From positions 160,001 to 224,000 of the forward strand of contig OZ242164.1 in assembly GCA_965205335.1 (NCBI GenBank): DNA of 64,000 nucleotides. The letters run 5' to 3'. A program made the position numbers and the translations under genes. Shown in pieces: positions 6,791 through 29,974 of this stretch (position 1 is its first letter; every line of letters begins with the position of its first letter). This DNA comes from Candidatus Woesearchaeota archaeon (GTDB lineage: Archaea > Nanobdellota > Nanobdellia > Woesearchaeales > UBA583). The notes beneath the pieces are model-generated. The model had not been told where the DNA came from and made no database searches. It saw nothing but the letters and a program-made list of their open reading frames with translations.

Positions 6791-7895
6791 TGTTATCATC
6801 AAGTCTTTATTTTTCATAAATTTAACTAAAAATTTTGATTTCTTTATTTATAAAAGTTTAATCCATTCTATAAGTTATTAGAAAATTAAGTATTTAAGAA
6901 TAATTCCTTTGCATCTAAATATTAAAAGTAGAAATTCAAATTCCTATTGTCTTACTATCATTGAGTAGAGAAAACTATATAAATAATAATCTCTTATTAT
7001 TTTAAGTATTAAAGAGAGTTTTCACAATAAAACTCTTAAATGTTAAAAGGCATGCATTTAGTTATTTAAGAATCATATAAACTTTATATGATGGTGCAAG
7101 TTTCTTTTTAATTAACAATGGAAACAACAATTAATTTAGAAGAGAGAATAGGAAACCATATATATAATGGAGATTTTATGGGAGGAATAGAAAGTCCTTC
7201 AAAGAGGAATTTTTTAAAGAAACTTGGGGTTGGTTTAGTTAGTTTAGTAGGTTATGCAACATTATGTAGTTCAGAGGCAAATGCGCAGGGCTTACCACCG
7301 GGGATAGCAAACTGCCGTGATAGAGCAATAAGAATATTATATAGAGATCAAGTTGGAGAAGACAGAGGAAGGAGCAGCTATGGAAGCATTAATAATAGGC
7401 TGAATGGTGTAATTGGTGGATTCTTTGACAGTGTATTAGTAGAGGATAAGTCAAAAAGGATTGAGCCGGCATTGTACTTGTTAAGAGAACAAATTAATCA
7501 CAAATACCGTAGTGGGCTTGGTATTACTGTTAGATTGCCGGAGGTTAGGGATGTGCCTCAGATGTTAAATTTTGATAGAGGAATTAAAAATTTTTATATT
7601 TCTTATATTTATCAGTGGGCAGGTCGTTATATCCCGCATGAAAAAAGCATAGGGAGTGAACAGACAAAAAGAGCGACTGAGAGTAATTTTGTCCATTCAA
7701 TAGCATACGCTGCATATTCTGATACTGAAACAGCAGAACAAAAAGCAAAAGAATATTTAGAGTCAGATATGGAAGGAAAAACAAGAGTAGTTATGGACAT
7801 AAAAAAACAATTTGAGGAAATGAGTAATGGAGACAAAGAATCAAGAGACCCAAGAGACCCGTACAACAGAAAACTCGCAGCATCCTGGAGTAGTT
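6782..7895 (+). repeat. Left arm of ~1.1-kb near-perfect inverted repeat (partner 22293-23405)
   Basis: Reverse complement of 22293-23405; one 1-bp indel seen near 6882; encoded proteins identical up to LAASWSS. Confidence 0.9.
6952..7117 (+). promoter_or_regulatory. 166-bp cassette leader, copy 1 of 6 (others 8381-8546, 9794-9959, 11429-11594 on +; 21633-21798, 23071-23236 on -)
   Basis: TTACTATCATTGAGTAGAGA...AGAGTTTTcacaatAAAACTCT...TATAAAcTTTATATG...TAATTAACA-ATG, nearly identical and the same length before all six genes; TATA-like TTTATA about 30-35 nt upstream of ATG. Confidence 0.85.
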
Positions 7896-8035
7896 TTCGG
7901 CTTGAAAGAAGTATTTTTTTTGAACAGAATGGAACAGATAGTGATAGAAATTTATCAATAAATAGACACATAGAAATCCCTCTGAGAGAAGCAGTAGGGT
8001 TCAGAATCAGAGGACCTCCTCACTATAAACTCTAA
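7118..8035 (+). CDS. Twin-arginine-signal cassette protein A1, unknown function
   Basis: SKRNFLK + hydrophobic stretch + ANA/Q cleavage-like site; paralog of 8547 and 22150. Confidence 0.8.
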   Translation: METTINLEERIGNHIYNGDFMGGIESPSKRNFLKKLGVGLVSLVGYATLCSSEANAQGLPPGIANCRDRAIRILYRDQVGEDRGRSSYGSINNRLNGVIGGFFDSVLVEDKSKRIEPALYLLREQINHKYRSGLGITVRLPEVRDVPQMLNFDRGIKNFYISYIYQWAGRYIPHEKSIGSEQTKRATESNFVHSIAYAAYSDTETAEQKAKEYLESDMEGKTRVVMDIKKQFEEMSNGDKESRDPRDPYNRKLAASWSSFRLERSIFFEQNGTDSDRNLSINRHIEIPLREAVGFRIRGPPHYKL

Positions 8036-8388
8036 TCTGCTTCTCCTTTCTCTTCTGTTCTCTGATGACCCTCATCATTTTGTTGTCTTCTGCAATTGTC
8101 TGATGATGTTAAGTAAAATTCTACTAAACCACTCTTACTAAAATTTAATATTTTTTCTGGCTGCTTTTGTCCTTCTACTTCTACTATTCTTTTAGATTCT
8201 AATGTGTATCTTAATGTTAATTTTGGTGGTTCTCTTGTTCCTGTAAAATGTTGTCCTACTTTTTCTGAGAAACTTCCACTTGTATTTAACTCCCTGAATC
8301 TTCCAATTAAGCCATCTGACAAATTTATTTCTTTTGAGTCAAAATTTTTTAATCCAAGAGATAAATCTTCTATACCACCATTACTATC
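8032..8388 (-). pseudogene. Partner 3'-end fragment alpha1 (tail NDEGHQRTEEKGEAD)
   Basis: Open frame from DSNGGIEDLSLGLKNFDSKEINLSDGLIGRF to stop, with no in-frame ATG; stop overlaps the A1 stop by 4 bp. Confidence 0.7.
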
Positions 8389-8546
8389 ATTGAGTAGAGA
8401 AAACTATATAAATAATAATCTCTTATTATTTTAAGTATTAAAGAGAGTTTTCACAATAAAACTCTTAAATGTTAAAAGGCATGCATTTAGTTATTTAAGA
8501 ATTATATAAACTTTATATGATGGTGCAAGTTTCTTTTTAATTAACA

Positions 8547-9440
8547 ATGGAAACAGCAATTAATTTAGAAGAGCGAATAGGAAACCATATAGATAATAGG
8601 AATATAATGGGAGAGATAGAAAATCCTTCAAGAAGGAATTTTTTAAAAGGACTTGGGATTGGTTTAGCGGGTTATGCAATATTTGGTGGTTTAGAGGCAA
8701 ATGCACAAGGCAGATATGATAACATGGAATTATTAAGACAACATTTACCTCCCGGGATATTAAACTGCCGTGACAGAGCAATTAGAATACTATACGCTCA
8801 GGAAGTCTCTGGCCTCTGGGATGACTTTGGTAGGCTTTATTATAGAATGAAAAGTGAATTTAATGGGTACTACGACAGTGTAATAGTAGAACCTTGGTCA
8901 AGAAAGATTGAACCTGCAATGTATTTACTAAGAGAGCAAATTAATTACAAACGTGGAGGAATTTTTGCAGATTGGCGAAAGGTTACAGATGTGCCACAGA
9001 TGTTAGCTTTTGATGAGGGGATAAGATATTTTTATATTGCTTATGTTTATGGTAATGGTAATGAACAGACAAAAAGAACTACTGAAGATAAATTTGTCCA
9101 TTCAATAGCATACGCTGCATATTCTGATACTGAAACAGCAGAACAAAAAGCAAAAGAATATTTAGAGTCAGATATGGAAGGAAAAACAAGAGTAGTTATG
9201 GACATAAAAAAACAATTTGAGGAAATGAGTAATGGAGACAAAGAATCAAGAGACCCAAGAGACCCGTACAACAGAAAATTAATGGCATCTTGGAGTAGTC
9301 TTATGCTTGAACAGAGTTATTTTTTTGAACAGAATAGAACAGATAGTGAGAGGAATCTTTCAATAAACAGACATATAGAGATTCCCCTTAGAGAAGCAGT
9401 AGGGTTCAGAATCAGAGGACCTCCTCATTATAGATATTAA
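8547..9440 (+). CDS. Twin-arginine-signal cassette protein A2
   Basis: Canonical SRRNFLK motif, ANA/Q site; shares the FVHSIAY...YNRKL block with A1 and A3. Confidence 0.8.
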   Translation: METAINLEERIGNHIDNRNIMGEIENPSRRNFLKGLGIGLAGYAIFGGLEANAQGRYDNMELLRQHLPPGILNCRDRAIRILYAQEVSGLWDDFGRLYYRMKSEFNGYYDSVIVEPWSRKIEPAMYLLREQINYKRGGIFADWRKVTDVPQMLAFDEGIRYFYIAYVYGNGNEQTKRTTEDKFVHSIAYAAYSDTETAEQKAKEYLESDMEGKTRVVMDIKKQFEEMSNGDKESRDPRDPYNRKLMASWSSLMLEQSYFFEQNRTDSERNLSINRHIEIPLREAVGFRIRGPPHYRY

Positions 9441-9447
9441 TTTAATT

Positions 9448-9801
9448 TTATCCTGCACCAACTCCTTCACTTGTCAGATTATTCCCACTGCTTTGTTGTC
9501 TTCTGCAATTGTCTGATGATGTTAAGTAAAATTCTACTGAACCACTCTTACTAAAATTTAATATTTTTTCTGGCTGCTTTTGTCCTTCTACTTCTACTAT
9601 TCTTTTAGATTCTAATGTGTATCTTAATGTTAATTTTGGTGGTTCTCTTGTTCCTGTAAAATGTTGTCCTACTTTTTCTGAGAAACTTCCACTTGTATTT
9701 AACTCCCTGAATCTTCCAATTAAGCCATCTGACAAATTTATTTCTTTTGAGTCAAAATTTTTTAATCCAAGAGATAAATCTTCTATACTACCATTACTAT
9801 C
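9448..9801 (-). pseudogene. Partner 3'-end fragment alpha2 (tail SSGNNLTSEGVGAG)
   Basis: Near-identical to alpha1 up to DNCRRQQ, then a different tail. Confidence 0.7.
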
Positions 9802-9959
9802 ATTGAGTAGAGAAAATTATATAAATAACAATCTCTTATTATTTTAAGTATTAAAGAGAGTTTTCACAATAAAACTCTTAAATGTTAAAAGGCATGCATT
9901 TAGTTATTTAAGAATTATATAAACTTTATATGATGGTGCAAGTTTCTTTTTAATTAACA

Positions 9960-10883
9960 ATGGAAACAACAATTAAATTAGAAAAGCGAATAGGAAACCA
10001 TATATATAATGGAAATTTTATGGAAGAGATAGAAAGTCCTTCAAAGAGGAGATTTTTAAAAGGATTATTAGGTGCGGGGGTTGTTGCAGTTACTCCAAAA
10101 TTAGCATTTGCACAAAGAAAGAAAAGAATCTCAGATGAAGCAAGAAATAGAATATGGGCAAACTACCCAGAAATGCAGGGTGCAATTGATTTGATAAACG
10201 ATGATGTTTTTGAGGGATTAATTGATTATGCAATGTATCCAAGTCAGGGATATTCTGACCCAAGAGGTATTCCCACATCAATAAGAAAAATACCAAGAGA
10301 AGACATTGGCACACCACACTATTGGCTTCTTTTAAAAATTTACGAAGATAATTACAATTATTATGCTGATGAAGGTGGAAATCCAGGAATGGGCGTTCCG
10401 CCTCCCCCCTCCCCACCATCAGGTGTGTGGTATTTTGCAAGAGGTTTGAGAGACAATAGTCCTGACAATGAAAGTGATTTACTTAAAGCATTGTACATAG
10501 GAGCAACAGGCAGTCCACAAGGAGCAGAACCAATAATCAATGGCACATTCATGAATGTACCCAGAGTTAGAGAAAAAGTAAGAGAATGGCGAGAGAGAAA
10601 TCAACTATCTTCAGATTTGGATGAAGAAGAACACTTATTGTTAGCTTATAACTTAAATGTATTAAGGGCAGTTAGATTTAGGGACGAGGAACTTGTTGAG
10701 TTAAGTCTTTTGGCATTAGAGGATTTTTATGATGGAGTTCGTGCTCCTTCAAAGAGTGACATTTATGGAGCGGAGATTATTGCAGATTTAACGAGAAGAG
10801 ACAAATTGCCAAGATATTCCATAATTGAGAGGACTGGTTCAAGTTTTGTTGTAACATCTCCCTTGCCAGTGCTGAGATTTTAA
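9960..10883 (+). CDS. Twin-arginine-signal cassette protein B1
   Basis: SKRRFLK + h-region + AFA/Q; paralog of 11595 and 20691. Confidence 0.8.
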   Translation: METTIKLEKRIGNHIYNGNFMEEIESPSKRRFLKGLLGAGVVAVTPKLAFAQRKKRISDEARNRIWANYPEMQGAIDLINDDVFEGLIDYAMYPSQGYSDPRGIPTSIRKIPREDIGTPHYWLLLKIYEDNYNYYADEGGNPGMGVPPPPSPPSGVWYFARGLRDNSPDNESDLLKALYIGATGSPQGAEPIINGTFMNVPRVREKVREWRERNQLSSDLDEEEHLLLAYNLNVLRAVRFRDEELVELSLLALEDFYDGVRAPSKSDIYGAEIIADLTRRDKLPRYSIIERTGSSFVVTSPLPVLRF

Positions 10884-11380
10884 CCTTTTTCTTTCACGCT
10901 TCTTGTATCTTGTACTTCACCACCACTTGTGATTCTGTTATTTGTTCTGGGATCACATTGTCTTATTCTGAATGTTCTTGATATTGTTACCGGTTCTTTA
11001 TTTTTTTTAGAATTTTTATTCTTTTGATGATATGTTAAGTACAGTGTAACTTCTTCTTCAGGTGTTCCCGTAGGAAGTTTATATCCTGACAAGTTTAATT
11101 CTCCTCTATAAAGATTATCTTTATATTCTAGTTCTCTTTCGGAATCTACTTCTACTTCCTTATCATCTCTTTTTACAGTTTTTTTATATTTGAATTTTTT
11201 AAACTTGTTCTTATCACTGTCTCTTCTCTGCTGTGCAAATGAAACTCTATAATCAAAATGTTTTCCATCATTATTTGTAATAGCAACAATTTCTTGTGTA
11301 TTATAATCAAAACCCTTCAAATTACTTACCGCTGAGATTATTACTGGTATGATTAAATCCTGTTCCTCCTCTTTATTTCT
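10880..11380 (-). pseudogene. Partner 3'-end fragment beta1 (tail DPRTNNRITSGGEVQDTRSVKEKG)
   Basis: Frame open from RNKEEEQDL to stop; 5' end fused out of frame to an alpha stub; stop overlaps the B1 stop. Confidence 0.7.
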
Positions 11381-11594
11381 TTTGAGTCAAAATTTTTTAA
11401 TCCAAGAGATAAATCTTCTATACTACTATTACTATCATTGAGTAGAGATAACTATATAAATAACAATCTCTTATTATTTTAAGTATTAAAGAGAGTTTTC
11501 ACAATAAAACTCTTAAATGTTAAAAGGCACGCATTTAGTTATTTAAGAATTATATAAACTTTATATGATGGTGCAAGTTTCTTTTTAATTAACA

Positions 11595-12533
11595 ATGGAA
11601 ACAGCAATTAATTTAGAAGAGCGAATAGGAAACCATATAGATAATGGAAATATTATGGAAGAGATAGAAAGTCCTTCAAAGAGGAGATTTTTAAAAGGAT
11701 TATTAGGTGCAGGAGTTATTGCAGTTACTCCAAAATTAGCATTTGCACAAAGAAGGAAGAAAATCTCAGATGAGGCAAGAGATAGGATTTGGAAAAACTA
11801 TCCAGAAATGCGAGATGTAATTAATATGATAAATGCAGGTAAAGGCAGAAATCACCTTGATTATGCACTGTTCCCCAATCAAGAAATATCTAATCTAAGA
11901 AATCTTCCTATAATGACCGACAAGATTCCAAAAGACGACATGGGGACACCGCAATACTGGCTTCTTGTAAGAATTGACAATCCAGGAACACGAAGTTATA
12001 ATCTGCTATTTGATGGCAGGCATGATCACCTTGGTGTTCCTCCACTTTCACCTCATACGGGAGTGTGGTATTTTGCAAGAAGTTTGAAAAGCAGAAGTTC
12101 TACTAACGAAAGTGATTTGCTTAAAGCCTTGTACATAGGAGCAACAGGCAGTCCACAAGGAGCAGAACCAATAATAAATGGTACATTTATGAATGTATCT
12201 GGAGTTAGAGAAAAAGTTAGGGAATGGAGAGAAGAATATGACTTTGCCCCACATTCAGATGAAGGAAATCATCTGTTAGCATATAATCTAAACATTCTCA
12301 GGGAAGCCATTTTCCCCAACACAGAACATTTTAAAGGCAGAGAACTTGTAGAATTAAGTCTTTTGGCACTGGAGGATTTTTATGATGAGGTTTATTCACC
12401 TGAAAAGAGTAATATCTATGGAGGAAGAATAGTTGGGGATTTAACGAAGAAGGATAAGTTGCCTGGATATTTTATGATTGATGAAGCAGGAGCAGAATCT
12501 CCTTTACCTGTGTTAAGATTTCATAGTAGGTAG
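11595..12533 (+). CDS. Twin-arginine-signal cassette protein B2
   Basis: Same leader and N-region; NESDLLKALYIGATGSPQGAEPIINGTFMN block shared with B1 and B3. Confidence 0.8.
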   Translation: METAINLEERIGNHIDNGNIMEEIESPSKRRFLKGLLGAGVIAVTPKLAFAQRRKKISDEARDRIWKNYPEMRDVINMINAGKGRNHLDYALFPNQEISNLRNLPIMTDKIPKDDMGTPQYWLLVRIDNPGTRSYNLLFDGRHDHLGVPPLSPHTGVWYFARSLKSRSSTNESDLLKALYIGATGSPQGAEPIINGTFMNVSGVREKVREWREEYDFAPHSDEGNHLLAYNLNILREAIFPNTEHFKGRELVELSLLALEDFYDEVYSPEKSNIYGGRIVGDLTKKDKLPGYFMIDEAGAESPLPVLRFHSR

Positions 12534-12589
12534 CGAGAAAGAGAAATTAAAATTCCATTTATCGGTCTCTGATTGATTATTTCATCTTA

Positions 12590-13276
12590 TTAACTAACCC
12601 CTCCATCTTCTGGAGTTTTTGTTTTTTCTTTCCGTTGAACTCCACCACTTGTGATTCTGTCAATTGTTCTGGGATCACATTGTCTTATTCTGAATGTTCT
12701 TGATATAGTTACTGGTTCTTTATTTTTTTTAGGGTCTTTACTCTTTTGATGATATGTTATATACAGAGTAACTTCTTCTTCAGGAGTTCCTGTTGGAAGT
12801 TTATATCCTGACAAGTTTAATTCTCCTCTATAAAGATTATCTTTATATTCTAGTTCTACTTTTACTTTCTTTTCTCTGCCATTACTATCCTTAATTACAT
12901 TGCCATTATCATCCTTAAGTACAAGATCGAATTTTTTTTCTAACTTGTTCTTCTCATTATCTCTTCTCTGCTGTGCAAATGAAACTCTGTAATCAAAATT
13001 TTTGTTATCATCTCTTTCAATATTCATGATACTCTCATCATCATACTTGAACTTCTCCCAATTACTTACCGCAGAGATTATTACTGGTACAATTAAATCC
13101 TGTTCCTCCTCTTTGTTTCTGACACACAAGCTTTGCTTTTCAAATGGTCTTACTATATCAAATATGAAATTCATATCATCATCTTCTTCATTTTTAACGT
13201 TTGAAGCAACAGTAAATCTGAGTTCAAGTAAATCATTGACATCCACATTTCTTGACACATCTATGTCTTCACCCAT
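12590..13276 (-). CDS. Partner beta2, longest copy (possibly itself a fragment)
   Basis: 228-aa ORF; frame stays open to about 13388; shares FDYRVSFAQQRRD, LNLSGYKLPTGTPEEEVTL and EPVTISRTFRIRQC with beta1 and beta3. Confidence 0.6.
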   Translation of the reverse strand: MGEDIDVSRNVDVNDLLELRFTVASNVKNEEDDDMNFIFDIVRPFEKQSLCVRNKEEEQDLIVPVIISAVSNWEKFKYDDESIMNIERDDNKNFDYRVSFAQQRRDNEKNKLEKKFDLVLKDDNGNVIKDSNGREKKVKVELEYKDNLYRGELNLSGYKLPTGTPEEEVTLYITYHQKSKDPKKNKEPVTISRTFRIRQCDPRTIDRITSGGVQRKEKTKTPEDGGVS

Positions 13277-13444
13277 TATACTATATTTTCTGAAATTATC
13301 TCTTGTTATACTTCCTGCATTGCTTGGTAAAAGTCTTAATAATAATCTACATTTTAATTCAGTAGTTTTATTTGTATTAAGACTTTTTCATAACATATAT
13401 AATTTAATAATAAACCCCCCTTTAAGTTGACAACTCATATAAAC

Positions 13445-14474
13445 GGCTCTGTCCATAAATTAATTTTTTTAAAATAAAAGAGATGAAAATACAATTTGAT
13501 ACTAAAACATTATCATTTTTCTTTTGAAAATTATCCAATTTTCATAGAAGAAAATTACATAAGAAAGTTTTTTTCTAATGTTATACCAAAGAATATTCCA
13601 TGCCATCTCCCTTTTTTTCATAAAATGTATCCTACTTCTGATATTTAGGCCTTGAACTCTCTTGAGTGATGAAAACACACTCTCGACATTGTTCCTTTTA
13701 TTGTATATTTCTTTGTTTTTGAAGTATTTTTGTTTGATTTTCCAATGCTTAAAAGCATTATGCTTGGTTTTTGCATAGTCTTTTGGCGGGAAAATCAAAT
13801 CTATATCTTTATCATTTAGAAAATCTAAATGATCAAAGGAAAAATATCCTTTGTCTGCCACAATAACACTCTTCTTTATTTTGAGTCTTTTGAAAAGTTT
13901 GTTTGCAACTTTTGAATCATGCTGATTCTTAACCAAGAAAGAATAATCAATTATTTGTTTAGAGCCTTGTACGTCACAAATTATATCTAATTTGTGCCAA
14001 GGTGATTTGGGTTCAAATCCAATCCGATGTTTGTAATAAGTAGTTTTATGGTCTGCATCAATTCCCGAACCATCAATTGCTACAAGGTCTGGATTAGGAT
14101 TTTCTAAAGAAAGTCTAATTAGGTTGCGGATAAAACTAACTGAGAAGAACTTTAACCACTTATGAAGTGTTGATTTCTTTGGAAGGCGTTTTAACTGCAA
14201 CCAATGCTTCCATGCGGTTAATGTGCCGTCTAGATTGCTTACAAACCTTCTAAAGGATTTTCCTGATTGGATGTATAAGACTATTATAGAAACTCTTTGA
14301 TAATTGTTAAAGAGTTTGCAACCCCTCACAAAATTGTGAGGCCTTAACCTTAAACTATGACAAAGTTTAAGTACTTCCTTATGTAAACTATTAGTAAAGT
14401 TGGTGTGTTCTAACATAAAAAACTATCAACTTTACACTTTATTAATTCTTCGATTTGAATTTATGGACAGTGCC
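13445..14474 (-). mobile_element. IS5-family insertion sequence (ISH1/IS903-like), 1030 bp
   Basis: 17-bp TIRs GGCTCTGTCCATAAATT / GGCACTGTCCATAAATT around a DDE transposase. Confidence 0.9.
13502..14416 (-). CDS. IS5-family DDE transposase
   Basis: VAIDGSG, HDS, VADKGY, YNKRNNVESVFSSLKR. Confidence 0.9.
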   Translation of the reverse strand: MLEHTNFTNSLHKEVLKLCHSLRLRPHNFVRGCKLFNNYQRVSIIVLYIQSGKSFRRFVSNLDGTLTAWKHWLQLKRLPKKSTLHKWLKFFSVSFIRNLIRLSLENPNPDLVAIDGSGIDADHKTTYYKHRIGFEPKSPWHKLDIICDVQGSKQIIDYSFLVKNQHDSKVANKLFKRLKIKKSVIVADKGYFSFDHLDFLNDKDIDLIFPPKDYAKTKHNAFKHWKIKQKYFKNKEIYNKRNNVESVFSSLKRVQGLNIRSRIHFMKKREMAWNILWYNIRKKLSYVIFFYENWIIFKRKMIMF

Positions 14475-16814: not shown

Positions 16815-16942
16815 GGCTCTGTCCATAAATTCAAAAGAACTTAAAATATTATATAAATAAAGTAATTTTTGACAAATAATCTTTTTCTTTGATTGAATAT
16901 AGTTAGCATAGATTTTGGAGAAAACAATTTATGGACAGAGCC
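16815..16942. mobile_element. MITE (128 bp) with TIRs matching the IS at 13445
   Basis: GGCTCTGTCCATAAATT...AATTTATGGACAGAGCC; interior homologous to the copies at 29848 and 43884. Confidence 0.9.
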
Positions 16943-20054: not shown

Positions 20055-20683
20055 GTGAAGAAGAGGTTAAATGAAAGAGGAGATGATGTTTACTGGACAT
20101 GGAATAGTGATGACATTCATTTAGCATTTGATTTAGTTAGACCGTTTGAAAAGCAAAGTGTTTGTGTCAGAAATAAAGAAGAGGAACAAGATCTAAATGT
20201 ATCAGTAATAATCTCTGCGGTAAGTAATTTGAAGGATTTTAAGTATATAATGTAAATATTAAAAACAATGATGTAGATGATGATATAGAAAAAGTTCCTA
20301 ATTATTTTGATTATAGAGTTTCATTTGCACAGCAGAGAAGAGATAGTGATAAGAACAAGTTTAAAAAATTCAAATATAAAAAAACTGTAAAAAGAGGTGA
20401 TAAGGAAGTAGAAGTAGATTCCGAAAGAGAACTAAATTATACAGATAATCTTTATAGTGGAATTTTAAACTTGTCAGGATATAAACTTCCAACAGGAACT
20501 CCTGAAGAGGAAGTTACACTGCATATAACTTATCATAAAAAAGATAAAGAACCAGTAACAATATCAAGAACATTCAGAATAAGACAATGTAATCCTGGAA
20601 TAATTGACAGAACCTCTACAGATGACGGTGATGATCCTAGTATTAAGGGAAGCTCTGGGGGAGATATTCCTAGTCAAGAATAA
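20055..20683 (+). pseudogene. Partner beta3, frameshifted near 20245 (tail NPGIIDRTSTDDGDDPSIKGSSGGDIPSQE)
   Basis: FDLVRPFEKQSVCVRNKEEEQDL in one frame continues as FDYRVSFAQQRRD...RIRQC in another. Confidence 0.75.
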
Positions 20684-20690
20684 TTATGAG

Positions 20691-21632
20691 TTAAAATCTT
20701 AATCTTGGTAAAGGATCTCTTACAACATAAATTGAACCATCTCTTTCAATTATAGAATATTCTGGCAACTTTCCTTTTTCTGTTAGGTCTTCAATTACCC
20801 ATGCCCGATAAAGACTTCTCCTTTCAGGAGAATTAGTTCTATCATAAAAATCCGCCAATGTTAAAAGACTTAGTTCTACAAGTTCTTTATCTCTAAAATC
20901 CACGTTCCTGAGAATATTCACATTATATGCTAATAGGTGATTTCCTTCGTCTGAAAATGGAGCAAAGTCATATTTTTCTTTCCATTCTCTTACTTTTTCT
21001 CTAACTCCAGATGCATTCATAAATGTACCATTTATTATTGGTTCTGCTCCTTGTGGACTGCCTGTTGCTCCTACATATAATGATTTAAGTAAATCACTTT
21101 CATTGTCAGGACTATTGTCTCTCAAACCTCTTGCAAAATACCACACACCTGAAGGGGGAGAGGGGGGAGGCGGAACGTCTAACCCTGGATCTCCGTCCTC
21201 ATCGGCAAAGAAATTATAATCATCATCTGCATGAATTTTTAAAAGAAGCCAATAGTGTGGTGTGTCCATATCTTCGCTTGATATTTTATCTATTGATGTA
21301 GGAATACCTCTTGGACTATAATATCCCTGATCTGGATACATTGCATAATCAATTAATACATCATCAACGGATTCATCATTCACATAATTATCATTTATCA
21401 AGTCAATTGCTCCTTGCATTTCTGGGTAGTTTGCCCAAATCCTATTTCTTGCTTCATCTGAGATTTTCTTCCTTCTTTGTGCAAATGCTAATTTTGGAGT
21501 AACTGCAATAACTCCTGCACCTAATAATCCTTTTAAAAATCTCCTCTTTGAAGGACTTTCTATCTCTTCCATAAAATTTCCATTATATATATGGTTTCCT
21601 ATTCGCTTTTCTAATTTAATTGCTGTTTCCAT
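20691..21632 (-). CDS. Twin-arginine-signal cassette protein B3
   Basis: B1-like N-terminal two thirds; B2-like YDFAP.SDEGNHLLAYN block. Confidence 0.8.
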   Translation of the reverse strand: METAIKLEKRIGNHIYNGNFMEEIESPSKRRFLKGLLGAGVIAVTPKLAFAQRRKKISDEARNRIWANYPEMQGAIDLINDNYVNDESVDDVLIDYAMYPDQGYYSPRGIPTSIDKISSEDMDTPHYWLLLKIHADDDYNFFADEDGDPGLDVPPPPSPPSGVWYFARGLRDNSPDNESDLLKSLYVGATGSPQGAEPIINGTFMNASGVREKVREWKEKYDFAPFSDEGNHLLAYNVNILRNVDFRDKELVELSLLTLADFYDRTNSPERRSLYRAWVIEDLTEKGKLPEYSIIERDGSIYVVRDPLPRLRF

Positions 21633-21790
21633 TGTTAATTAAAAAGAAACTTGCACCATCATATAAAGTTTATATAATTCTTAAATAACTAAATGCATGC
21701 CTTTTAACATTTAAGAGTTTTATTGTGAAAACTCTCTTTAATACTTAAAATAATAAGAGATTGTTATTTATATAATTTTCTCTACTCAAT

Positions 21791-22147
21791 GATAGTAATG
21801 GTGGTATAGAAGATTTATCTCTTGGATTAAAAAATTTTGACTCAAAAGAAATAAATTTGTCAGATGGCTTAATTGGAAGATTCAGGGAGTTAAATACAAG
21901 TGGAAGTTTCTCAGAAAAAGTAGGACAACATTTTACAGGAACAAGAGAACCACCAAAATTAACATTAAGATACACATTAGAATCTAAAAGAATAGTAGAA
22001 GTAGAAGGACAAAAGCAGCCAGAAAAAATATTAAATTTTAGTAAGAGTGGTTTAGTAGAATTTTACTTAACATCATCAGACAATTGCAGAAGACAACAAC
22101 AAGGAGATGTAGGGGGAGTAGGTGATGCCGATGAAGGGGAAATTTAA
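21791..22147 (+). pseudogene. Partner 3'-end fragment alpha3 (tail QGDVGGVGDADEGEI)
   Basis: Identical to alpha1 up to DNCRRQQ, third distinct tail. Confidence 0.7.
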
Positions 22148-22149
22148 TG

Positions 22150-23070
22150 TTAATATTTATAATTATAGTGGGGGGGTCCTCTAATCTTAAATCCTACATC
22201 TTCTCTTAATGGTGCTTCTATATTTCTATTTATAAGTAAGCCTATTTCCATTTGATTACCCCTACTAGGGCGATAATTTACTACAAGCCAATAACTACTC
22301 CAGGATGCTGCGAGTTTTCTGTTGTACGGGTCTCTTGGGTCTCTTGATTCTTTGTCTCCATTACTCATTTCCTCAAATTGTTTTTTTATGTCCATAACTA
22401 CTCTTGTTTTTCCTTCCATATCTGACTCTAAATATTCTTTTGCTTTTTGTTCTGCTGTTTCAGTATCAGAATATGCAGCGTATGCTATTGAATGGACAAA
22501 ATTACTCTCAGTCGCTCTTTTTGTCTGTTCACTCCCTATGCTTTTTTCATGCGGGATATAACGACCTGCCCACTGATAAATATAAGAAATATAAAAATTT
22601 TTAATTCCTCTATCAAAATTTAACATCTGAGGCACATCCCTAACCTCCGGCAATCTAACAGTAATACCAAGCCCACTACGGTATTTGTGATTAATTTGTT
22701 CTCTTAACAAGTACAATGCCGGCTCAATCCTTTTTGACTTATCCTCTACTAATACACTGTCAAAGAATCCACCAATTACACCATTCAGCCTATTATTAAT
22801 GCTTCCATAGCTGCTCCTTCCTCTGTCTTCTCCAACTTGATCTCTATATAATATTCTTATTGCTCTATCACGGCAGTTTGCTATCCCCGGTGGTAAGCCC
22901 TGCGCATTTGCCTCTGAACTACATAATGTTGCATAACCTACTAAACTAACTAAACCAACCCCAAGTTTCTTTAAAAAATTCCTCTTTGAAGGACTTTCTA
23001 TTCCTCCCATAAAATCTCCATTATATATATGGTTTCCTATTCTCTCTTCTAAATTAATTGTTGTTTCCAT
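22150..23070 (-). CDS. Twin-arginine-signal cassette protein A3
   Basis: Identical to A1 up to LAASWSS, distinct last ~47 aa. Confidence 0.8.
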   Translation of the reverse strand: METTINLEERIGNHIYNGDFMGGIESPSKRNFLKKLGVGLVSLVGYATLCSSEANAQGLPPGIANCRDRAIRILYRDQVGEDRGRSSYGSINNRLNGVIGGFFDSVLVEDKSKRIEPALYLLREQINHKYRSGLGITVRLPEVRDVPQMLNFDRGIKNFYISYIYQWAGRYIPHEKSIGSEQTKRATESNFVHSIAYAAYSDTETAEQKAKEYLESDMEGKTRVVMDIKKQFEEMSNGDKESRDPRDPYNRKLAASWSSYWLVVNYRPSRGNQMEIGLLINRNIEAPLREDVGFKIRGPPHYNYKY

Positions 23071-23405
23071 TGTTAATTAAAAAGAAACTTGCACCATCAT
23101 ATAAAGTTTATATGATTCTTAAATAACTAAATGCATGCCTTTTAACATTTAAGAGTTTTATTGTGAAAACTCTCTTTAATACTTAAAATAATAAGAGATT
23201 ATTATTTATATAGTTTTCTCTACTCAATGATAGTAAGACAATAGGAATTTGAATTTCTACTTTTAATATTTAGATGCAAAGGAATTATTCTTAAATACTT
23301 AATTTCTAATAACTTATAGAATGGATTAAACTTTTATAAATAAAGAAATCAAAATTTTTAGTTAAATTTATGAAAAATAAAGACTTGATGATAACATAAG
23401 AGAAG
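22293..23405 (-). repeat. Right arm of ~1.1-kb inverted repeat
   Basis: Reverse complement of 6782-7895. Confidence 0.9.
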
Positions 23406-23544
23406 TTGTTACCATATCAAAAGAAGAGTATGAGAGTCTTAAGGCAAAAGAGAAATTTGCACAATATGGTTTAGCCCAACTCAAACTTACTTATAGCAGA
23501 ATACGAAAAAAACGGACTTCAAAAAGTCCTATAGTCATCTACTA
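23370..23544 (+). pseudogene. Frameshifted small antitoxin-like gene
   Basis: ATG at 23370 is out of frame with DDNIREVVTISKEEYESLKAKEK, a pattern common in small archaeal antitoxins. Confidence 0.35.
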
Positions 23545-23848
23545 AAAAATGTTTAAATATCTCTTTGTTTTCTTTAACAAATTTAATTATTTCTTGCCAT
23601 CATAAGCCACTAAAAGTACTTTTTGCGGTTCTATTTTCCAAATATAATCAGTAATAAAGTCTCTTGCTGTCAATAACAACTTTATAATCAACTGAAATAA
23701 TTTTCCGTATATAATTACAATATATTGTACCTTTTTACGTAAATTGCCAAAATAGGGTTCTGTTAAATTTCAGAGACCTGTCAATTTATTTCTTTTAGGT
23801 GATTGAGTAGAGTAAGTGAAAAAACTTTCTGAAAATTTAATAATAAAT

Positions 23849-24001
23849 TTATTCTAATAATTTATTCTTTTTAATGTGTTCTCTAACTGCTTCTTTACAA
23901 AAATCTGCTCTACTTTGATATAGAGGACTTGCATTAATTATCTTATCTACTTCATTCACCATATCCTGAGGAAATGAAACATTTGTATATTTTGAGTTCA
24001 T
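23849..24001 (-). CDS. Ribbon-helix-helix (CopG/NikR-like) regulator, 50 aa
   Basis: Manual translation MNSKYTNVSFPQDMVNEVDKIINASPLYQSRADFCKEAVREHIKKNKLLE. Confidence 0.7.
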   Translation of the reverse strand: MNSKYTNVSFPQDMVNEVDKIINASPLYQSRADFCKEAVREHIKKNKLLE

Positions 24002-24113
24002 ACCTTTGGAAATGGTATTATAAATAAAATATTTATCTGAGACTTCTATAAGAATTATGTGAGATTTCCTATGAAATATGATCTATAAAGTAAGAGATAT
24101 TATGTATAATAAA

Positions 24114-24249
24114 ATGCCTAAAATAAAGTTTGAAGTAGATGGGTGGTTATTGTTGCAGATGTAATCATAAATGGAAAGCAAGGAAGGTAAACAAGCCTAT
24201 AATATGTCCTAAATGTAAAAGTCCATATGGGGATATTTTGAAAAAATAA
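24114..24249 (+). pseudogene. Frameshifted small zinc-ribbon protein
   Basis: MPKIKFEVDGW / (+1 nt) YCCRCNHKWKARK..KPIICPKCKSPY; two CxxC knuckles. Confidence 0.6.
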
Positions 24250-24400
24250 AAAAATTTGCTTATTTATTTGTATTACAACCAAGTGCTTAATCAAATTATT
24301 AGAACTTAATTTCTAAATAAGTAATTCTCAAATTCCATGATTATACATCATAATACACTAAATAAAATTAGAAAAAGTAAATTAAAAAATATAAGATAAT

Positions 24401-27058
24401 TTATCCTACATTAACTTGTGAACCTTCTAAGTTGCCAGAACTTAATCTACTAGCAGCAGCTGACGTATCAGCAGCTGACCAACCATATACTAAAACGGAG
24501 TTCACACTCTCAAACAATCTAATCTGACCCTGTCCAGGAGATAAACCTGACGCAACACCCACTGACGGGTATGGAAGGCTAAGTAGTTGAGCCGCAACCC
24601 TGTTAACAGCAGGACCTCCAACAACAATCATATTACTTGTTCCAATAACCTGACTATCTAACAAAGGACCTGAGATTGCAAAAGTAACTGCTCCCTCTCT
24701 CATATCATTAACCTCTACATTTTTGTACATGCTTTCTCCTTTAAGTTCATCAGCTCTCTCTTCAGCCTCTTCCATTGTCATAAATGATTCAGACATAAAC
24801 TCAGTTTTAGCACTATCACCGAATACAACGGAAACTTCTGCTCTTACCTGTTCATCAGGAGTCATAATAGTTATTTTATCATTATCATCATTTACTTCTA
24901 CCATTACACCATACTTAGTAACGAAAGTTTTAAAGTCTGAATCTTCATCATTATCAGCATTATCAGCATTTACCCACTTATCCTCATCTCCCTCAAGTTG
25001 AGGTGTATTAAATTCCAATTCATCATCTGAGTTCCAAATAATAGGTATAGTAATATTCATATCCACATCATTAGGTTTATCATAATTTACATCACCCTTA
25101 TCTAATTTGAAAGTTAATTTTGATGAAGCAGGAGCTACTGCTAAAAAATTAACATTCTCAGCTTCTTCTGTCAATTCTAAAACCATCTCGTTCTCAAATG
25201 GGATTTCATTACCTAATTTTCTTGTGTCAAGTGTAATTTCACCTCTATCATCAATCACAGTTGAAAATGGAGCACCTCTTCCTAAATCTTCAGCCCAGTC
25301 AGCAAGAGGAAGATTATCCACATCATTTCCCCTTAAAAGTTCATTAAAATGAGTCTCATATTCCTCTGCATCTCCTACTTTCCCAATCTCATACAGGAAA
25401 GCATCATTCTTATCTCCAAGTAAGAAACCAAAACCTTCACTATCACTTAATTTAAATGCTACATTATCATTCATTAAATCCACTATATCACCATCTGCAG
25501 TATTCACAAATCCTGGAATATCTGGTAATGATCCTCTGAAAAATATTCTATTATCATCATTATTTCCTACAACATATAAATGAACCCCAGTAATCACCTT
25601 TTCTGAATCCTTCAATACATTTGCATGTAAAAGTGACTTACTAAGACTTTCACCTTCATCTGTTTCTCCAAAGATTTCAATGTCATCATCATTAGCTTCA
25701 AGTTTTAATTCACTATAATCAGGTTCATTAGTTCCTTCATATACCACTTCAAAAGCGTCAAACAGAACATCTGTAAGAGAGTCTCCTTCCTGTAATAGAA
25801 AATGATCATCTACTATGTAATCAATAGTAATTGTTTCTAAACCTTCACCAGAGAATTCTACATTAATATCATATTCTCCCTCGTACATATCACTAAAATC
25901 CTCATTGTTGATTTTAACTCTACCTTTTTCAAGTGTAACCTTATTTCCACCAACAACTAATACTGCATTACCTTTAGTATGTTGTGACCCTGAAACTAAA
26001 TCAGTAACTGCTATCACAAGTCCGCTTACATCTTCAGAATCATATTCATCAATTGACTGTGCGTCACCGTCAACTTCAAGCAGAACTTCGTCATCATCAA
26101 TGTTCAGAACTGTAATTTCATATGTTCTACCTCCAAAAGGAACAGATATAGATCCACCTTCAGGTAAAGCATACCTCTGAGAACCACCAGTTAAAACTAA
26201 CTTAGTTACATTACGATTTTCATCATCCTTCTTTCCATTTCTTGTAATATCAGCAATAGTAAACTCATTTCCCATAATTTCTAACTCGTGACCGATTAAA
26301 TCATCATCAAACTTATCTTCATCAAGAGAAATAGGACTATTCATTTCTAATGTGTAACTTGCAAATATATCACCATCTTTATAGAAAATTCCACTAGTGA
26401 TTTCTTCCACACCATCAACTTCATCACGCAGAGCATAGTTAAATTCTCCACCAAGTAACTCTAATTTTTGTTCATAATCTTCATCAGAAATGTCATTATC
26501 AAATCTTTTATCTTTTAAAACATCAGTATCTGACTCATCAAATCCACTTGTTTCAGTAACTCCATCAGTTATAATTGGGATTTTATTGCCACTAGGAGCA
26601 TGTAATACGAAACCTTTACTATCAACATCAACTGATAATTCTGGGTCATCATTATTATAATCTGTTGGGAAAAGTTTTGCAAGTTCTCCATCTGGACTAT
26701 AATCATCCCTATGTAAATATTTCTTGTCAAAAAAATCTCCAAGATATTCACCATAGTTCAATTCAGTATTAGACCTTACTGCATCTACTGTATCACCGCC
26801 TCCACCTCCTGTGGATTTGATATAAGTAACCTCATATTTCATACTCTCTGTCTTAAGAGAATCAATAATCATGTTAGCTGCAGTTGAATCAGAAGCCTGA
26901 GCCGCTGCACCTACTACAACATTAACTCCTGTATTATTAAAATTATCAGGATAATTGCTTAATCCAGCACCGAAAACCGCTGAACTTGCCATCACAACAG
27001 ATGTTGCCACTGCTGTAATTCTTCTTGTTGCTTTTTTAAAAGCTCTATTTATTACCAT
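24401..27058 (-). CDS. S-layer protein (Methanococcus/Thermococcus/DPANN type)
   Basis: Signal peptide; N-terminal VVVGAAAQASD and C-terminal MIVVGGPAVNRVA...VYGWSAADT motifs; very acidic. Confidence 0.9.
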   Translation of the reverse strand: MVINRAFKKATRRITAVATSVVMASSAVFGAGLSNYPDNFNNTGVNVVVGAAAQASDSTAANMIIDSLKTESMKYEVTYIKSTGGGGGDTVDAVRSNTELNYGEYLGDFFDKKYLHRDDYSPDGELAKLFPTDYNNDDPELSVDVDSKGFVLHAPSGNKIPIITDGVTETSGFDESDTDVLKDKRFDNDISDEDYEQKLELLGGEFNYALRDEVDGVEEITSGIFYKDGDIFASYTLEMNSPISLDEDKFDDDLIGHELEIMGNEFTIADITRNGKKDDENRNVTKLVLTGGSQRYALPEGGSISVPFGGRTYEITVLNIDDDEVLLEVDGDAQSIDEYDSEDVSGLVIAVTDLVSGSQHTKGNAVLVVGGNKVTLEKGRVKINNEDFSDMYEGEYDINVEFSGEGLETITIDYIVDDHFLLQEGDSLTDVLFDAFEVVYEGTNEPDYSELKLEANDDDIEIFGETDEGESLSKSLLHANVLKDSEKVITGVHLYVVGNNDDNRIFFRGSLPDIPGFVNTADGDIVDLMNDNVAFKLSDSEGFGFLLGDKNDAFLYEIGKVGDAEEYETHFNELLRGNDVDNLPLADWAEDLGRGAPFSTVIDDRGEITLDTRKLGNEIPFENEMVLELTEEAENVNFLAVAPASSKLTFKLDKGDVNYDKPNDVDMNITIPIIWNSDDELEFNTPQLEGDEDKWVNADNADNDEDSDFKTFVTKYGVMVEVNDDNDKITIMTPDEQVRAEVSVVFGDSAKTEFMSESFMTMEEAEERADELKGESMYKNVEVNDMREGAVTFAISGPLLDSQVIGTSNMIVVGGPAVNRVAAQLLSLPYPSVGVASGLSPGQGQIRLFESVNSVLVYGWSAADTSAAASRLSSGNLEGSQVNVG

Positions 27059-27529
27059 TTTTGTTCATCTCATATAATTCTCATATAAGTCTGACATATA
27101 TACAACATAATTAGCAGACATATATTATATTAAGTAATTTAGTATTATCTCAGTAATAACAAATTTTTTATTGTAACTAATGATATGAAAAGTATGTTTA
27201 TAAACTTTGAATTTTTAATTATTCATCCTAAGTTAGAAGTCAAATAAATTTTGTAGATAGATTTTAAACCTCTCATTTACGGAATAGCCAAGACGTTAAA
27301 CCTAACTGGGGACAATAGATTGGTTCTTTCTTTTACCAACCTATTGTGGTTATTTTAGCAGTATAGGCAGTTTTATCTAATATAGTTTTACCTTTGTGGT
27401 TATAAAAAATTTTAACGTTTCAGATAATTATTATACTAGTCTCAGAGAAATAGTTTATTTATGTTAGAAATATTTATTTCTATATAGTAATAATACGAGG
27501 TCTCTGAAATTTAACAGAACCCCAAAATA

Positions 27530-28621
27530 GTGAATTTTATAAATGTACCTTTCCTGATAGTAATAAAAATGGTTAAAATATATGGCTCAAGTGGTAGTGA
27601 AAAAAGATTCCTTGACGCAGTTAATTCAAGACTGAAAGGGTGTGAACTGAACTCTCTTGATGAATTTGAAGAATACAAATCAGACCCCTTAAAATGGGAA
27701 AAAGAACTAATAGACGAAAAAGAATTCAGAGTAAAGTCCTGTGAAGATGAGAATGTGTTCCTAAAAAAAGAGAATGTGAGAAATAAGATTAGAATAGAAA
27801 GAATAGTTTCCAAAATAAATCTCAGAAACAAAACAGTATTAAAGAATTTTGGAGAAATCAAAGAAAAAGCTCAAAATAAAGTTGATGAATTAGAATATAA
27901 AAAATCTAAAATAGAAAAAAATCTAAAAAGAAATAGGGATAAGCTTGTACAAAACACAAAAGACACTCAAAACACCAAAAAAGTTGAAATCAAAACAATA
28001 ATGGAGAATTACAAACACAATGCAAAAGAAATCAAACTTATTCAAAAAGACAAAGAACTTTTAAACTTAATAACTAAATCTCACAGTGAAAACCTTGTTA
28101 TAAAGCGTTTTCAGGAGAGTTTCAGATCAGACAATCTCACTTATTTAATTAACGGACTTAATCTGAACATGCTAAATAAAAATTCAAGAAAACCAAACAT
28201 AATAGATCATCTATTTATATCAAAGAAGGGCGTATTCTTATTTGAAATAACGCAACAGATGAAAATTACTCCAAAAGTTAAAGCAGAGATAAGAAAGAGA
28301 TTAGAAAATCTGGGAAAAGCATTTAAAACTAAATTTAAAGACATAGTGAAGATCAATCCAAAAGTTACCTTAATAAGCGCACGAGAAGAAATCAAATTAG
28401 ACGGGTTCAAAACTTTAAATATTGACAATTTAAAAAAATACATATCAGACAGAGAGGAAATACTAAGCAATGATGATTTAACGATAATTCTAAATGAAGT
28501 CCTGAAATATACTCACAGCATCTCTACAATAGACACTTTATCAATCAAAACAAAGAAAGTATTAGTTGATGTTAAAGAATACATTAACAAAAAATTCAAT
28601 GAAATAAGCAATAAACCTTGA
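27530..28621 (+). CDS. Coiled-coil protein with NERD-like domain; ATG at 27569 is the likelier start
   Basis: SENLV...IDHLFISKKGVFLFE. Confidence 0.55.
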   Translation: MNFINVPFLIVIKMVKIYGSSGSEKRFLDAVNSRLKGCELNSLDEFEEYKSDPLKWEKELIDEKEFRVKSCEDENVFLKKENVRNKIRIERIVSKINLRNKTVLKNFGEIKEKAQNKVDELEYKKSKIEKNLKRNRDKLVQNTKDTQNTKKVEIKTIMENYKHNAKEIKLIQKDKELLNLITKSHSENLVIKRFQESFRSDNLTYLINGLNLNMLNKNSRKPNIIDHLFISKKGVFLFEITQQMKITPKVKAEIRKRLENLGKAFKTKFKDIVKINPKVTLISAREEIKLDGFKTLNIDNLKKYISDREEILSNDDLTIILNEVLKYTHSISTIDTLSIKTKKVLVDVKEYINKKFNEISNKP

Positions 28622-28650
28622 TTTAAATTTTCGATTTTTTAATAAAAAAC

Positions 28651-29799
28651 CTATCCTTTCCAATTAATAATTGGTTTAATATGAGAGAGAACTCTAACAC
28701 TCTTTTTCTGAGCATCCATTACATCATAAATATTCTTATATGCCTGTGGAGCTTCATCTAATGTATTCTTATCAATCTTTCCAACAATACCTTTCATCTT
28801 ATCCTCAAACTCTTTCATCTTAATCTTTAACTTTGCCTCTGTCCTGCTTAAAACTCTTCCTGCCCCATGTGATGAACTTTCCAAAAAATCCTTATTTCCC
28901 AAACCTTCAACCAAAAAACATCCCTCCTGCATATTTGCTGGAATAACTCCTTTCTCATTCTTTCTTGCAGGAGTAGCTCCTTTTCTGTGGATATAAAATC
29001 CCCTCTCGAAAATTGCATGATTATGATTCTTATTAGTCCATAACTCAAAATTTAAAGAAGAATCACGTAAAATGTTTCTTAAAACATCCCTGGCCTTATA
29101 CGCCATCTCTAATCTATTTAATAATGCAAACTCCAAACCAAAATTTAAAACATTTAGGTACTCTCTACCTTCCTGAGAGTCAATATCTAAAGAATATGTT
29201 TTCTCATACCCTTTATCACTTCCTGACGCCTTCTTCATATAATGAGTTGCAACTTTGTGACCAATGCCTCTTGAACCACTATGAATTACGAGCCATACCT
29301 CATCACATTTCCCTTTAATAAAACCAAGCTCAATAAAATGATTCCCAGAACCTAGAGAACCTAAATGAGAAACTGCCTGAGTTCTTAAAAACTTGTAAAC
29401 ATCTTTATCATAATCTCTTTTACAAAAGTCTTCTAAAATCACTTTAAAATCTTCCCTTGACTTATCTGAAACATCCTTTAAATGCCCAATCCTCCCCTTC
29501 CCCATTGGAATAACCAAACTAACATCATCAAAAATCCTCTTAGCTTTTTCTCTAACTAAACTTACAATATTCTCTTTCCTGAAAACACATGCAATCACCC
29601 CGCAGCCAATATCATAACCAACCCATGAAGGAATAATTTTATTCCTAGTTTTAAAAACCGAACCTATTGGTGCTACATATCCCTTATGAGCATCAGGCAT
29701 AAGCGAAGCATGAACTACAAAATCCTCACTGCAACAAGAATCAAACTGAGACATAGTGCTCTCATCAAGTCCAATTGCGAAATTAGTTACTTTCTTCAT
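28651..29799 (-). CDS. rtcB: RNA ligase RtcB
   Basis: MPDAHKGY, VGYDIGCG, GSLGSGNHF, HSGSRG, HRKGAT, SHGAGR, DEAPQAYK. Confidence 0.95.
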   Translation of the reverse strand: MKKVTNFAIGLDESTMSQFDSCCSEDFVVHASLMPDAHKGYVAPIGSVFKTRNKIIPSWVGYDIGCGVIACVFRKENIVSLVREKAKRIFDDVSLVIPMGKGRIGHLKDVSDKSREDFKVILEDFCKRDYDKDVYKFLRTQAVSHLGSLGSGNHFIELGFIKGKCDEVWLVIHSGSRGIGHKVATHYMKKASGSDKGYEKTYSLDIDSQEGREYLNVLNFGLEFALLNRLEMAYKARDVLRNILRDSSLNFELWTNKNHNHAIFERGFYIHRKGATPARKNEKGVIPANMQEGCFLVEGLGNKDFLESSSHGAGRVLSRTEAKLKIKMKEFEDKMKGIVGKIDKNTLDEAPQAYKNIYDVMDAQKKSVRVLSHIKPIINWKG

Positions 29800-29847: not shown

Positions 29848-29974
29848 GGCTCTGTCCGGAAATTCAAGAGAACTTAAAATATTGTATCAATAAAGCAACT
29901 TTTGACGAATAATTTTTTCTTTGATTGAGTATAGTTAGCATAGATTTTGGAAAAAGCAATTTCCGGACAGAGCC
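29848..29974. mobile_element. MITE with 8-bp TSD CTTTTTTA
   Basis: TIR GGCTCTGTCCGGAAATT at both ends; TSD at 29840-29847 and 29975-29982. Confidence 0.92.

Follow-up and report, generated by a model that had tools for sequence, protein, structure and literature searches.

How does an intact surface layer (S-layer) gene come to lie between perfect inverted repeats, and did it arrive there as a unit? This question is raised by a cassette of 3766 bp in the genome of a Candidatus Woesearchaeota archaeon. The window that we analyzed, a stretch of 64,000 nucleotides, corresponds to positions 160001 to 224000 of a closed genome of 1,199,749 bp (30.9% G+C), and the cassette occupies positions 23756 to 27521 of this window (genome 183756 to 187521). 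We propose, with a probability of about 0.8, that the cassette is a non-autonomous cargo element related to the insertion sequence (IS) family IS6, that it is mobilized in trans, that its cargo is an S-layer paralogue, and that this paralogue exchanges sequence with a resident gene by gene conversion.

An original prediction, made from the letters of the window, had described perfect 24-bp terminal inverted repeats and an exact 9-bp flanking duplication around the 3766 bp. Both were recovered by reading the sequence, by a repeat finder and by comparison with shuffles (Table 1). Allowing up to 3 mismatches, the window contains the end pattern at two places, a number reached by none of 100 shuffles. 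For a 9-mer match at the spacing of the cassette, the expectation from base composition is 1.3e-5, and 20 such matches were counted at 1,195,965 positions of the genome. The repeat finder gives 25 nt for the inverted ends, since the last base of the duplication pairs too. We chose a 24-bp end with a 9-bp duplication, rather than 25 bp with a shorter one, because the duplications of the sister units described below (TGGAGAAAC and TGTGTTCAA) lack the C start and the G end. Furthermore, both junctions of the cassette are bridged without a difference in independently built contigs from two public runs, which may be the source sample of the genome.

The S-layer gene and the small ribbon-helix-helix (RHH) gene that had been noted inside the element are both intact open reading frames (ORFs). 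The zinc-ribbon gene had been called broken, which we could not establish: it is an open ORF of 36 codons, and its arrangement is the same in a decayed second copy of the cassette. No transposase was found between the ends, either in the ORF list, in Pfam and NCBIfam searches with the 885-aa and 50-aa products, or by tblastn over genome positions 183756 to 187521 with the 355-aa transposase introduced below. Likewise, the ORF list and Pfam gave no recombinase gene within or beside the element.

Table 1. Coordinates of the cassette features and of related loci (window positions unless marked as genome positions)
Feature	Position	Strand	Evidence or remark
Left target-site duplication copy CCAAAATAG, 9 bp	23747-23755	.	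Sequence reading; chance ~1.3e-5
Left terminal inverted repeat GGTTCTGTTAAATTTCAGAGACCT, 24 bp, IS6-like (GG start, G at position 7)	23756-23779	+	Repeat finder, pattern scans
RHH gene, 50 aa, intact, cassette backbone	23849-24001	-	ORF list; identical in second cassette copy
Subterminal inverted repeat, left arm, 43 nt, 86% complementary	24020-24062	.	In divergent RHH/zinc-ribbon intergenic region
CxxC...CxxC zinc-ribbon ORF, 36 codons, open	24139-24249	+	Preceded by 16-codon ORF in other frame
S-layer-family cargo gene, 885 aa, intact	24401-27058	-	ORF list, homology and model evidence
Upstream region of cargo gene, 439 bp	27059-27497	-	Unique in genome; unrelated to upstream region of resident paralogue
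Subterminal inverted repeat, right arm, 43 nt	27420-27462	.	35 bp inside right end
Right terminal inverted repeat, 24/24 complementary to left one	27498-27521	-	Repeat finder, pattern scan
Right target-site duplication copy CCAAAATAG	27522-27530	.	38 bp upstream of ATG (27569) of flanking 350-aa orphan gene
Passenger-carrying IS6-like unit (L049), 4568 bp	genome 34174-38741		Ends 21/24 each versus those of cassette; 9-bp duplication CTAAGAAAG
Intact transposase, 355 aa, SWIM + zinc ribbon + DDE_Tnp_IS240	genome 37660-38727		Stop codon inside right end of 4568-bp unit
Transposase-less unit, MORN_2-repeat cargo	genome 1194783-1195789		9-bp duplication TGGAGAAAC
Transposase-less unit (L051), 815 bp, MORN_2-repeat cargo	genome 664673-665487		9-bp duplication TGTGTTCAA once two inserted elements are discounted
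Resident intact S-layer paralogue P0002, 799 aa	genome 431011-433410		Not flanked by cassette-type ends
Decayed second cassette copy, inverted orientation, unrelated flanks	genome 510806-512577		Left end, RHH gene and zinc-ribbon ORF as in cassette

Scanning the genome for the end sequence gave 8 sites at up to 3 mismatches (0 with the reversed control); with up to 6 mismatches, the number rose to 16. Seven candidate pairs of ends were obtained, and a perfect 9-bp duplication flanks four of them, namely, the cassette, the 4568-bp unit and the two units with MORN_2-repeat cargo listed in Table 1; the pairs at genome positions 116278 to 125230, 137400 to 147023 and 827526 to 829751 have no duplication. 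The 4568-bp unit encodes a 355-aa transposase that matches Pfam DDE_Tnp_IS240 (PF13610) with 77.2 bits (cut-off, 27) and SWIM with 22.5 bits (cut-off, 19.6). This protein also has an IS1/IS1595-type zinc domain, and its D, D and E motifs are readable as WHTDE, ITDGS and IIERYHGTHKDR. The best of eight NCBIfam models, by a wide margin, was that of IS6 (NF033587, 120.9 bits); because this score is under the cut-off of the model, we named the element IS6-like. The remaining cargo of the unit consists of Vsr, a C5 cytosine methylase and a 238-aa protein that is possibly a restriction enzyme, and a further solo end of the family starts directly past the right duplication (genome 38751).

In tblastn searches, the transposase was found at seven places: the intact gene, a copy at 77% identity that is read through into an ORF of 583 aa, a truncated copy and four remnants. 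At least four of these seven terminate in the end type of the cassette. The 77% identical copy (genome 440966 to 442765) is without a recognizable right end, and the C-terminal half of its 583-aa ORF is unrelated. GIY-YIG genes were seen just inside two other solo ends (genome 292165 to 292512 and 439363 to 439680). At the 815-bp unit, the region from 664537 to 665624 contains two miniature inverted-repeat transposable elements (MITEs), one in each copy of the 9-bp duplication. Both chose one and the same 8-bp target, and this 8-mer, GTGTTCAA, is now present four times; the doubled insertion could reflect a strongly preferred target or copying through recombination.

The cassette ends read GGTTCTG, with G at positions 1, 2 and 7 as in the IS6 family, the ends of which have a GG start and a G at position 7 (PMC6807381) and are longer in archaeal members (PMC7986276, PMC6807381). 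IS6 members are described as producing 8-bp repeats (PMC7986276), and for the archaeal members ISH15 and ISPfu5 the duplication is given as 9 bp (Table 5 of PMC6807381). More distant relatives of the transposase had a plausible pair of ends at one of seven loci (L046), and their ends are unlike those of the cassette.

The cassette has occupied a second site. The decayed copy at genome positions 510806 to 512577 lies in an unrelated flank, and its identity to the cassette begins exactly at the first G of the end (genome 512573), which places the boundary of the mobile unit at the inverted repeat and argues that at least two sites have been occupied. Over the ~665 bp that separate the start of the end sequence from the S-layer stop codon, the two copies differ at 2 positions (99.7% identity). 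By contrast with this backbone, the S-layer part of the second copy is wrecked, and only residues ~92 to 107, 163 to 240 and 646 to 885 are left, in separate frames. This copy adjoins an rve/IS481-like transposase ORF of 287 aa (L052, genome 509884 to 510804), the 66-bp terminal sequence of which was found at at least 8 other places; the L052 transposase probably truncated the second copy. The original prediction of a transposition-type insertion by a transposase-less cargo unit is thus borne out by a cognate transposase, by sister cargo units with 9-bp duplications and by a copy elsewhere, and the genome search for its terminal repeats returned the transposase-bearing partner as well as other cargo. 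Its assignment of the ends held for the IS6 type and failed for the IS5/IS903 type.

The cargo is a large acidic protein whose N terminus forms a hydrophobic leader; blocks at both termini are conserved. It had no Pfam match at an E value of 0.01 or better. Among its relatives, S_layer_C (PF05124) stands in the precomputed annotation of 20 of 36 homologues, and the homologue P0011 (~43 to 45% identical) reaches 37.2 bits against a cut-off of 23.9. Furthermore, a profile built from 33 family members matches the PDB entry 9fsa, "S-layer protein," with an E value of 1.2e-3. The AlphaFold model of the 885-aa protein (predicted local distance difference test [pLDDT], 77.4; predicted template modeling [TM] score, 0.63) is nearly all beta, and its top match in Foldseek is an S-layer domain of Methanosarcina acetivorans (3u2g; probability, 0.99), the remaining matches being low-probability beta-propeller noise. 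Matches were obtained in 14 of 19 genomes of the genus, mostly as one full-length gene of ~820 aa, several genomes having more, and no close relative was confirmed in the Joint Genome Institute (JGI) metagenomes. We accept the cargo as an S-layer protein at the level of the family. The gene is presumably expressed and coat-forming.

The cassette gene is not the only one of its kind in the genome, since the count of S-layer paralogues also includes the intact resident gene at 431 kb and the decayed copy. The case that would have refuted the original prediction, in which the cassette gene is the sole S-layer gene, therefore does not apply. Over the whole length, the cassette and the resident gene differ with a nonsynonymous rate (dN) of 0.19 and a synonymous rate (dS) of 0.53 (dN/dS, 0.36). 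This average hides a mosaic. In the middle windows, dS is 0.6 to 1.6 and dN/dS is 0.04 to 0.44, with values below 1 in every window, while dS is as low as 0.096 in the first 63 codons and 0.000 in codons 763 to 822. The DNA upstream and downstream of the two genes is unrelated. The coding sequences are thus nearly identical toward the 5' and 3' ends but old and diverged between them, which indicates that the mobile and the resident gene recombine by gene conversion. In the 3' coding part, the two are 96 to 100% identical per 50-base window, and the decayed copy is ~85 to 90% identical to both. Directly past the stop codon, the relation is reversed: the cassette equals the decayed copy at 44 of 44 positions and the resident gene at 22 of 44. 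As judged from these alignments, the 3' tract can be assigned firmly to gene conversion, ending where the homology ends, and the codon comparisons likewise argue firmly for purifying selection. Since the cassette backbones are only 0.3% apart, the overwriting is recent, with the resident gene as donor for the 3' part of the cassette gene or the other way around.

For the middle region, a maximum-likelihood tree with 33 rows groups the cassette allele with P0003 (98/94) and the resident allele with P0004 (95/92), both of which are proteins from other assemblies. The alleles therefore predate the lineage of this genome, or one of them arrived horizontally. The neighbors of the S-layer gene in eight relatives have counterparts scattered over the present genome, and a neighbor pair was kept only by the 431-kb copy, with one relative; none of the S-layer loci of these eight has flanking inverted repeats of the cassette type.

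The cassette was inserted as one unit between two genes, leaving the 9-bp target duplication of its family. In the mechanism that we propose, the transposase would be given in trans, most likely by the 355-aa protein of the 4568-bp unit or by a close relative; the units of this system reach 4.6 kb, and the cognate transposase is present in the genome. In the IS26 model, an intramolecular replicative event divides the flanking repeats between two inverted copies (PMC7986276). An intact duplication around one copy thus points to an intermolecular route, with formation of a cointegrate, as in IS26, and its homologous resolution (the partner being a sister chromosome, a plasmid or foreign DNA), or to a simple insertion. 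Once in place, the cassette may serve as a movable second coat allele or as a reservoir, exchanging with the resident gene by gene conversion.

Several results weigh against this proposal. An empty site was found neither in the run contigs nor via 40 relatives: in the contigs of runs X1 to X3 and X6 over positions 22500 to 28700, no joint skips the element, contigs being prone to drop rare variants, and the sole skip, from 26545 to 26740 with 20 other letters between, corresponds to the form of the resident paralogue. The 350-aa gene on the right flank has no homologue among the 40 relatives, and synteny therefore yields no empty site. Neither did the end pattern occur in any of these 40 relatives or in the genome_contigs, viral_contigs and metagenome_contigs collections. 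With regard to the family, the transposase narrowly misses the equivalog cut-off of 125 of NF033587, the duplication is 9 bp in four of four duplicated units instead of the canonical 8 bp of IS6, and we found in the genome no inner left end just upstream of the transposase that would define a short autonomous IS and no minimal copy of the order end-transposase-end. With regard to the cargo, S_layer_C reaches only 14.6 bits on the 885-aa protein at a relaxed threshold (cut-off, 23.9), and the TM scores of the Foldseek match are low (0.12/0.24). Finally, gene order is too rearranged to show which paralogue is ancestral.

The same structure would also result if the cassette gene were a silent archival copy, acting only as donor or recipient of conversion with an expressed resident gene. 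The 439 bp upstream of the cassette gene are unrelated to the region upstream of the resident gene, an insertion of 58 residues (107 to 164) is missing from the resident paralogue and modeled with a pLDDT below 50, the sister copy has decayed, and a conversion tract is documented, all of which would suit an archive. Against an archive, however, all 885 codons of the ORF are intact, dN/dS stays below 1 throughout the windows, and the element includes 439 bp of upstream sequence of the gene's own; we consider this explanation unlikely. Another candidate for the driving force is a second transposon system of the genome, with ends GGCTCTGTCC, which comprises a 1030-bp IS5-family IS (window 13445 to 14474; Pfam DDE_Tnp_1) and a 128-bp MITE. 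It is clearly active: the IS is present in 5 copies, 4 of which have an 8-bp duplication, and of the MITE there are at least 35 paired copies, 22 of 35 with a perfect 8-bp duplication; two MITE copies were seen inside the window, at 29848 to 29974 and 16815 to 16942. The ends of this IS also begin GGCTCTGT, the first 8 bases being nearly alike in both end families, and one cargo unit has GGCTCTGTTCAG at its left end. The 8-bp duplications of the IS5 type nevertheless contrast with the 9 bp at all four duplicated GGTTCTGTT-type units, and the cassette ends agree with those of the IS6-like transposase unit at 21 of 24 positions but with the IS5-type ends only over the first 8 or 9 bases. It is for these two reasons that we assigned the cassette to the IS6-like system, and mobilization by the IS5-family transposase appears very improbable to us.

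The remaining explanations do without transposition of the cassette as a unit. Solo ends of the family are common in this genome and pseudo-compound transposons are known for the IS6 family (PMC7986276), so a native S-layer gene might have come to lie between two solo ends or decayed IS copies of independent origin, as the remnant of a compound transposon that never moved as a whole. Against this stand the identical 9-bp duplication around the entire unit (p, ~1e-5), the 24 of 24 identity of the two ends, and the recurrence at a second site of the order end-RHH-zinc ribbon-S-layer, with identity from the end onward; moreover, the pseudo-compound transposons of IS6 consist of directly repeated whole ISs rather than inverted bare ends. 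We therefore give a bracketed native gene very little credence. An S-layer gene between perfect inverted repeats also recalls an invertible switch, and inversion-based S-layer switching is known in bacteria. Recombination sites that flip the S-layer gene, as in the sap or slp systems, are nonetheless scarcely credible here, given that the repeats serve as ends of a transposase-bearing element and have direct duplications on their outer sides, that no recombinase gene lies inside or beside the element, and that the contigs of three runs show a single orientation with no strand-changing joint. A mobile IS6-like cargo cassette remains our preferred reading.

Several smaller features accompany the genes of the cassette. 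The RHH product has a weak match to NikR-type RHH proteins (E value, 2e-4), far under the cut-off. The 43-nt subterminal inverted repeat, whose right arm copies part of the RHH promoter region, might act as an operator or, speculatively, as an outward promoter. An imperfect 12-bp hairpin (CAATAGATTGGT ... ACCAACCTATTG) was seen at 27310 to 27345, in the G+C-richer part of the region upstream of the S-layer gene, and has no Rfam match. Scans of the element for Rfam families, tRNAs, promoters and terminators gave nothing meaningful, the sigma-70 model not being applicable to archaea.

Outside the cassette, large inverted blocks of paralogous genes relate the window positions 6782 to 13352 to the positions 20108 to 23405, with 75 to 96% identity in pieces; the gene family of these blocks is that of a secreted-looking 306-aa protein at 22150 to 23070, and a third related block lies at genome positions 754757 to 756674. 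One stretch of 1.9 kb, at 94.6% identity, extends to 23405, which leaves 350 bp to the cassette, and the statement in the original prediction that the element sits 350 bp from a polymorphic cassette locus was right in substance.

Elements of this general design have been described before, and the claim that no example was known proved overstated. MIC231 of Bacillus cereus, for instance, is mobilized by the transposase of IS231A. Mobile insertion cassettes (MICs), in which IS ends enclose passengers without a transposase, are an established class (PMC4337579, PMC5444012, PMC6542083), with examples in the qnrS2 MIC of Aeromonas plasmids and the Tn3-type MICs with transcription activator-like effector (TALE) genes of Xanthomonas. 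The S-layer cassette shares with them the IS-type inverted ends, the target duplication, the passengers and the lack of a transposase, the cognate enzyme being encoded elsewhere in the genome. As the MIC class requires, the length of its duplication (9 bp) is that of the transposase-bearing parent unit. Unlike the known MICs, its parent is IS6-like and not IS4/IS231 or Tn3, its host is a DPANN-type archaeon, and its cargo is a paralogue of the cell's own putative major envelope protein, which recombines with the resident gene.

Within the IS6/IS26 family, the archaeal and zinc-finger members (ISH14, ISH15 and ISPfu5; ISCpe7, ISCbo1 and ISTps1; ISDsp3) have in common with the present family DDE_Tnp_IS240 and ends with GG and G at position 7, and an N-terminal zinc-binding extension is common to the present transposase and the clade VII transposases of 340 to 353 aa (PMC7986276). 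The present family differs by its 9-bp instead of 8-bp duplication, by an extra SWIM finger and by having no short autonomous copy (0.7 to 1.4 kb), its sole intact transposase residing in the 4.6-kb unit with Vsr and a C5 methylase. In ISfinder, a single passenger-carrying IS6 member (ISDsp3) and two MITEs are reported (PMC7986276), and the accessible parts of two IS6 reviews (PMC7986276, PMC6807381) make no mention of a transposase-less cargo derivative for this family.

The cargo can be compared with the S-layer proteins of the Methanococcales/Thermococcales type (S_layer_N/S_layer_C): its homologues share PF05124, and the protein is beta-rich and acidic and has a leader. Unlike those proteins, it stays below the Pfam threshold and contains the low-confidence insertion of 58 residues. 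Multicopy S-layer families with conserved terminal blocks, a variable body and exchange between copies are found in the sap homologues of Campylobacter fetus and in slpA/slpB of Lactobacillus. The cassette and the resident gene have the conserved coding ends, the variable body and the exchange between copies in common with these families. They differ in that one copy is on a transposable cassette and that the upstream regions of the two are unrelated, and no inversion or single-promoter mechanism was seen. As far as our literature search reaches, in sources of which parts were accessible, three aspects are undescribed: that the parent of such a cassette is IS6-like, that its cargo is an S-layer paralogue, and that a mobile coat gene exchanges sequence with a resident one.

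In DPANN archaea, which live attached to other cells, the S-layer is the surface that meets hosts and viruses. The present case offers a concrete route by which this surface could vary: a coat gene that is packaged in a transposable cassette and linked to the resident gene by a conversion tract. In this one closed genome, the IS6-like family consists mostly of cargo carriers (restriction-modification, MORN-repeat surface proteins and the S-layer) and not of plain insertion sequences, and its 24-bp ends and 9-bp duplications provide natural substrates with which an archaeal IS6-like transposase could be studied biochemically for the first time; for such enzymes, PMC6807381 records no experimental data. 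More tentatively, and with some doubt on our part, IS6-like cassettes might be vehicles of coat variation in DPANN archaea more generally, with alleles that have conserved, recombinogenic ends, ride on cassettes lacking a transposase, spread between strains and are swapped by conversion into or out of the resident locus; the grouping of the cassette allele with P0003 and of the resident allele with P0004 is compatible with horizontal delivery and also with an old system of two alleles. If it is true, such cassettes would alter the surface that is met by viruses and by the attached host cell.

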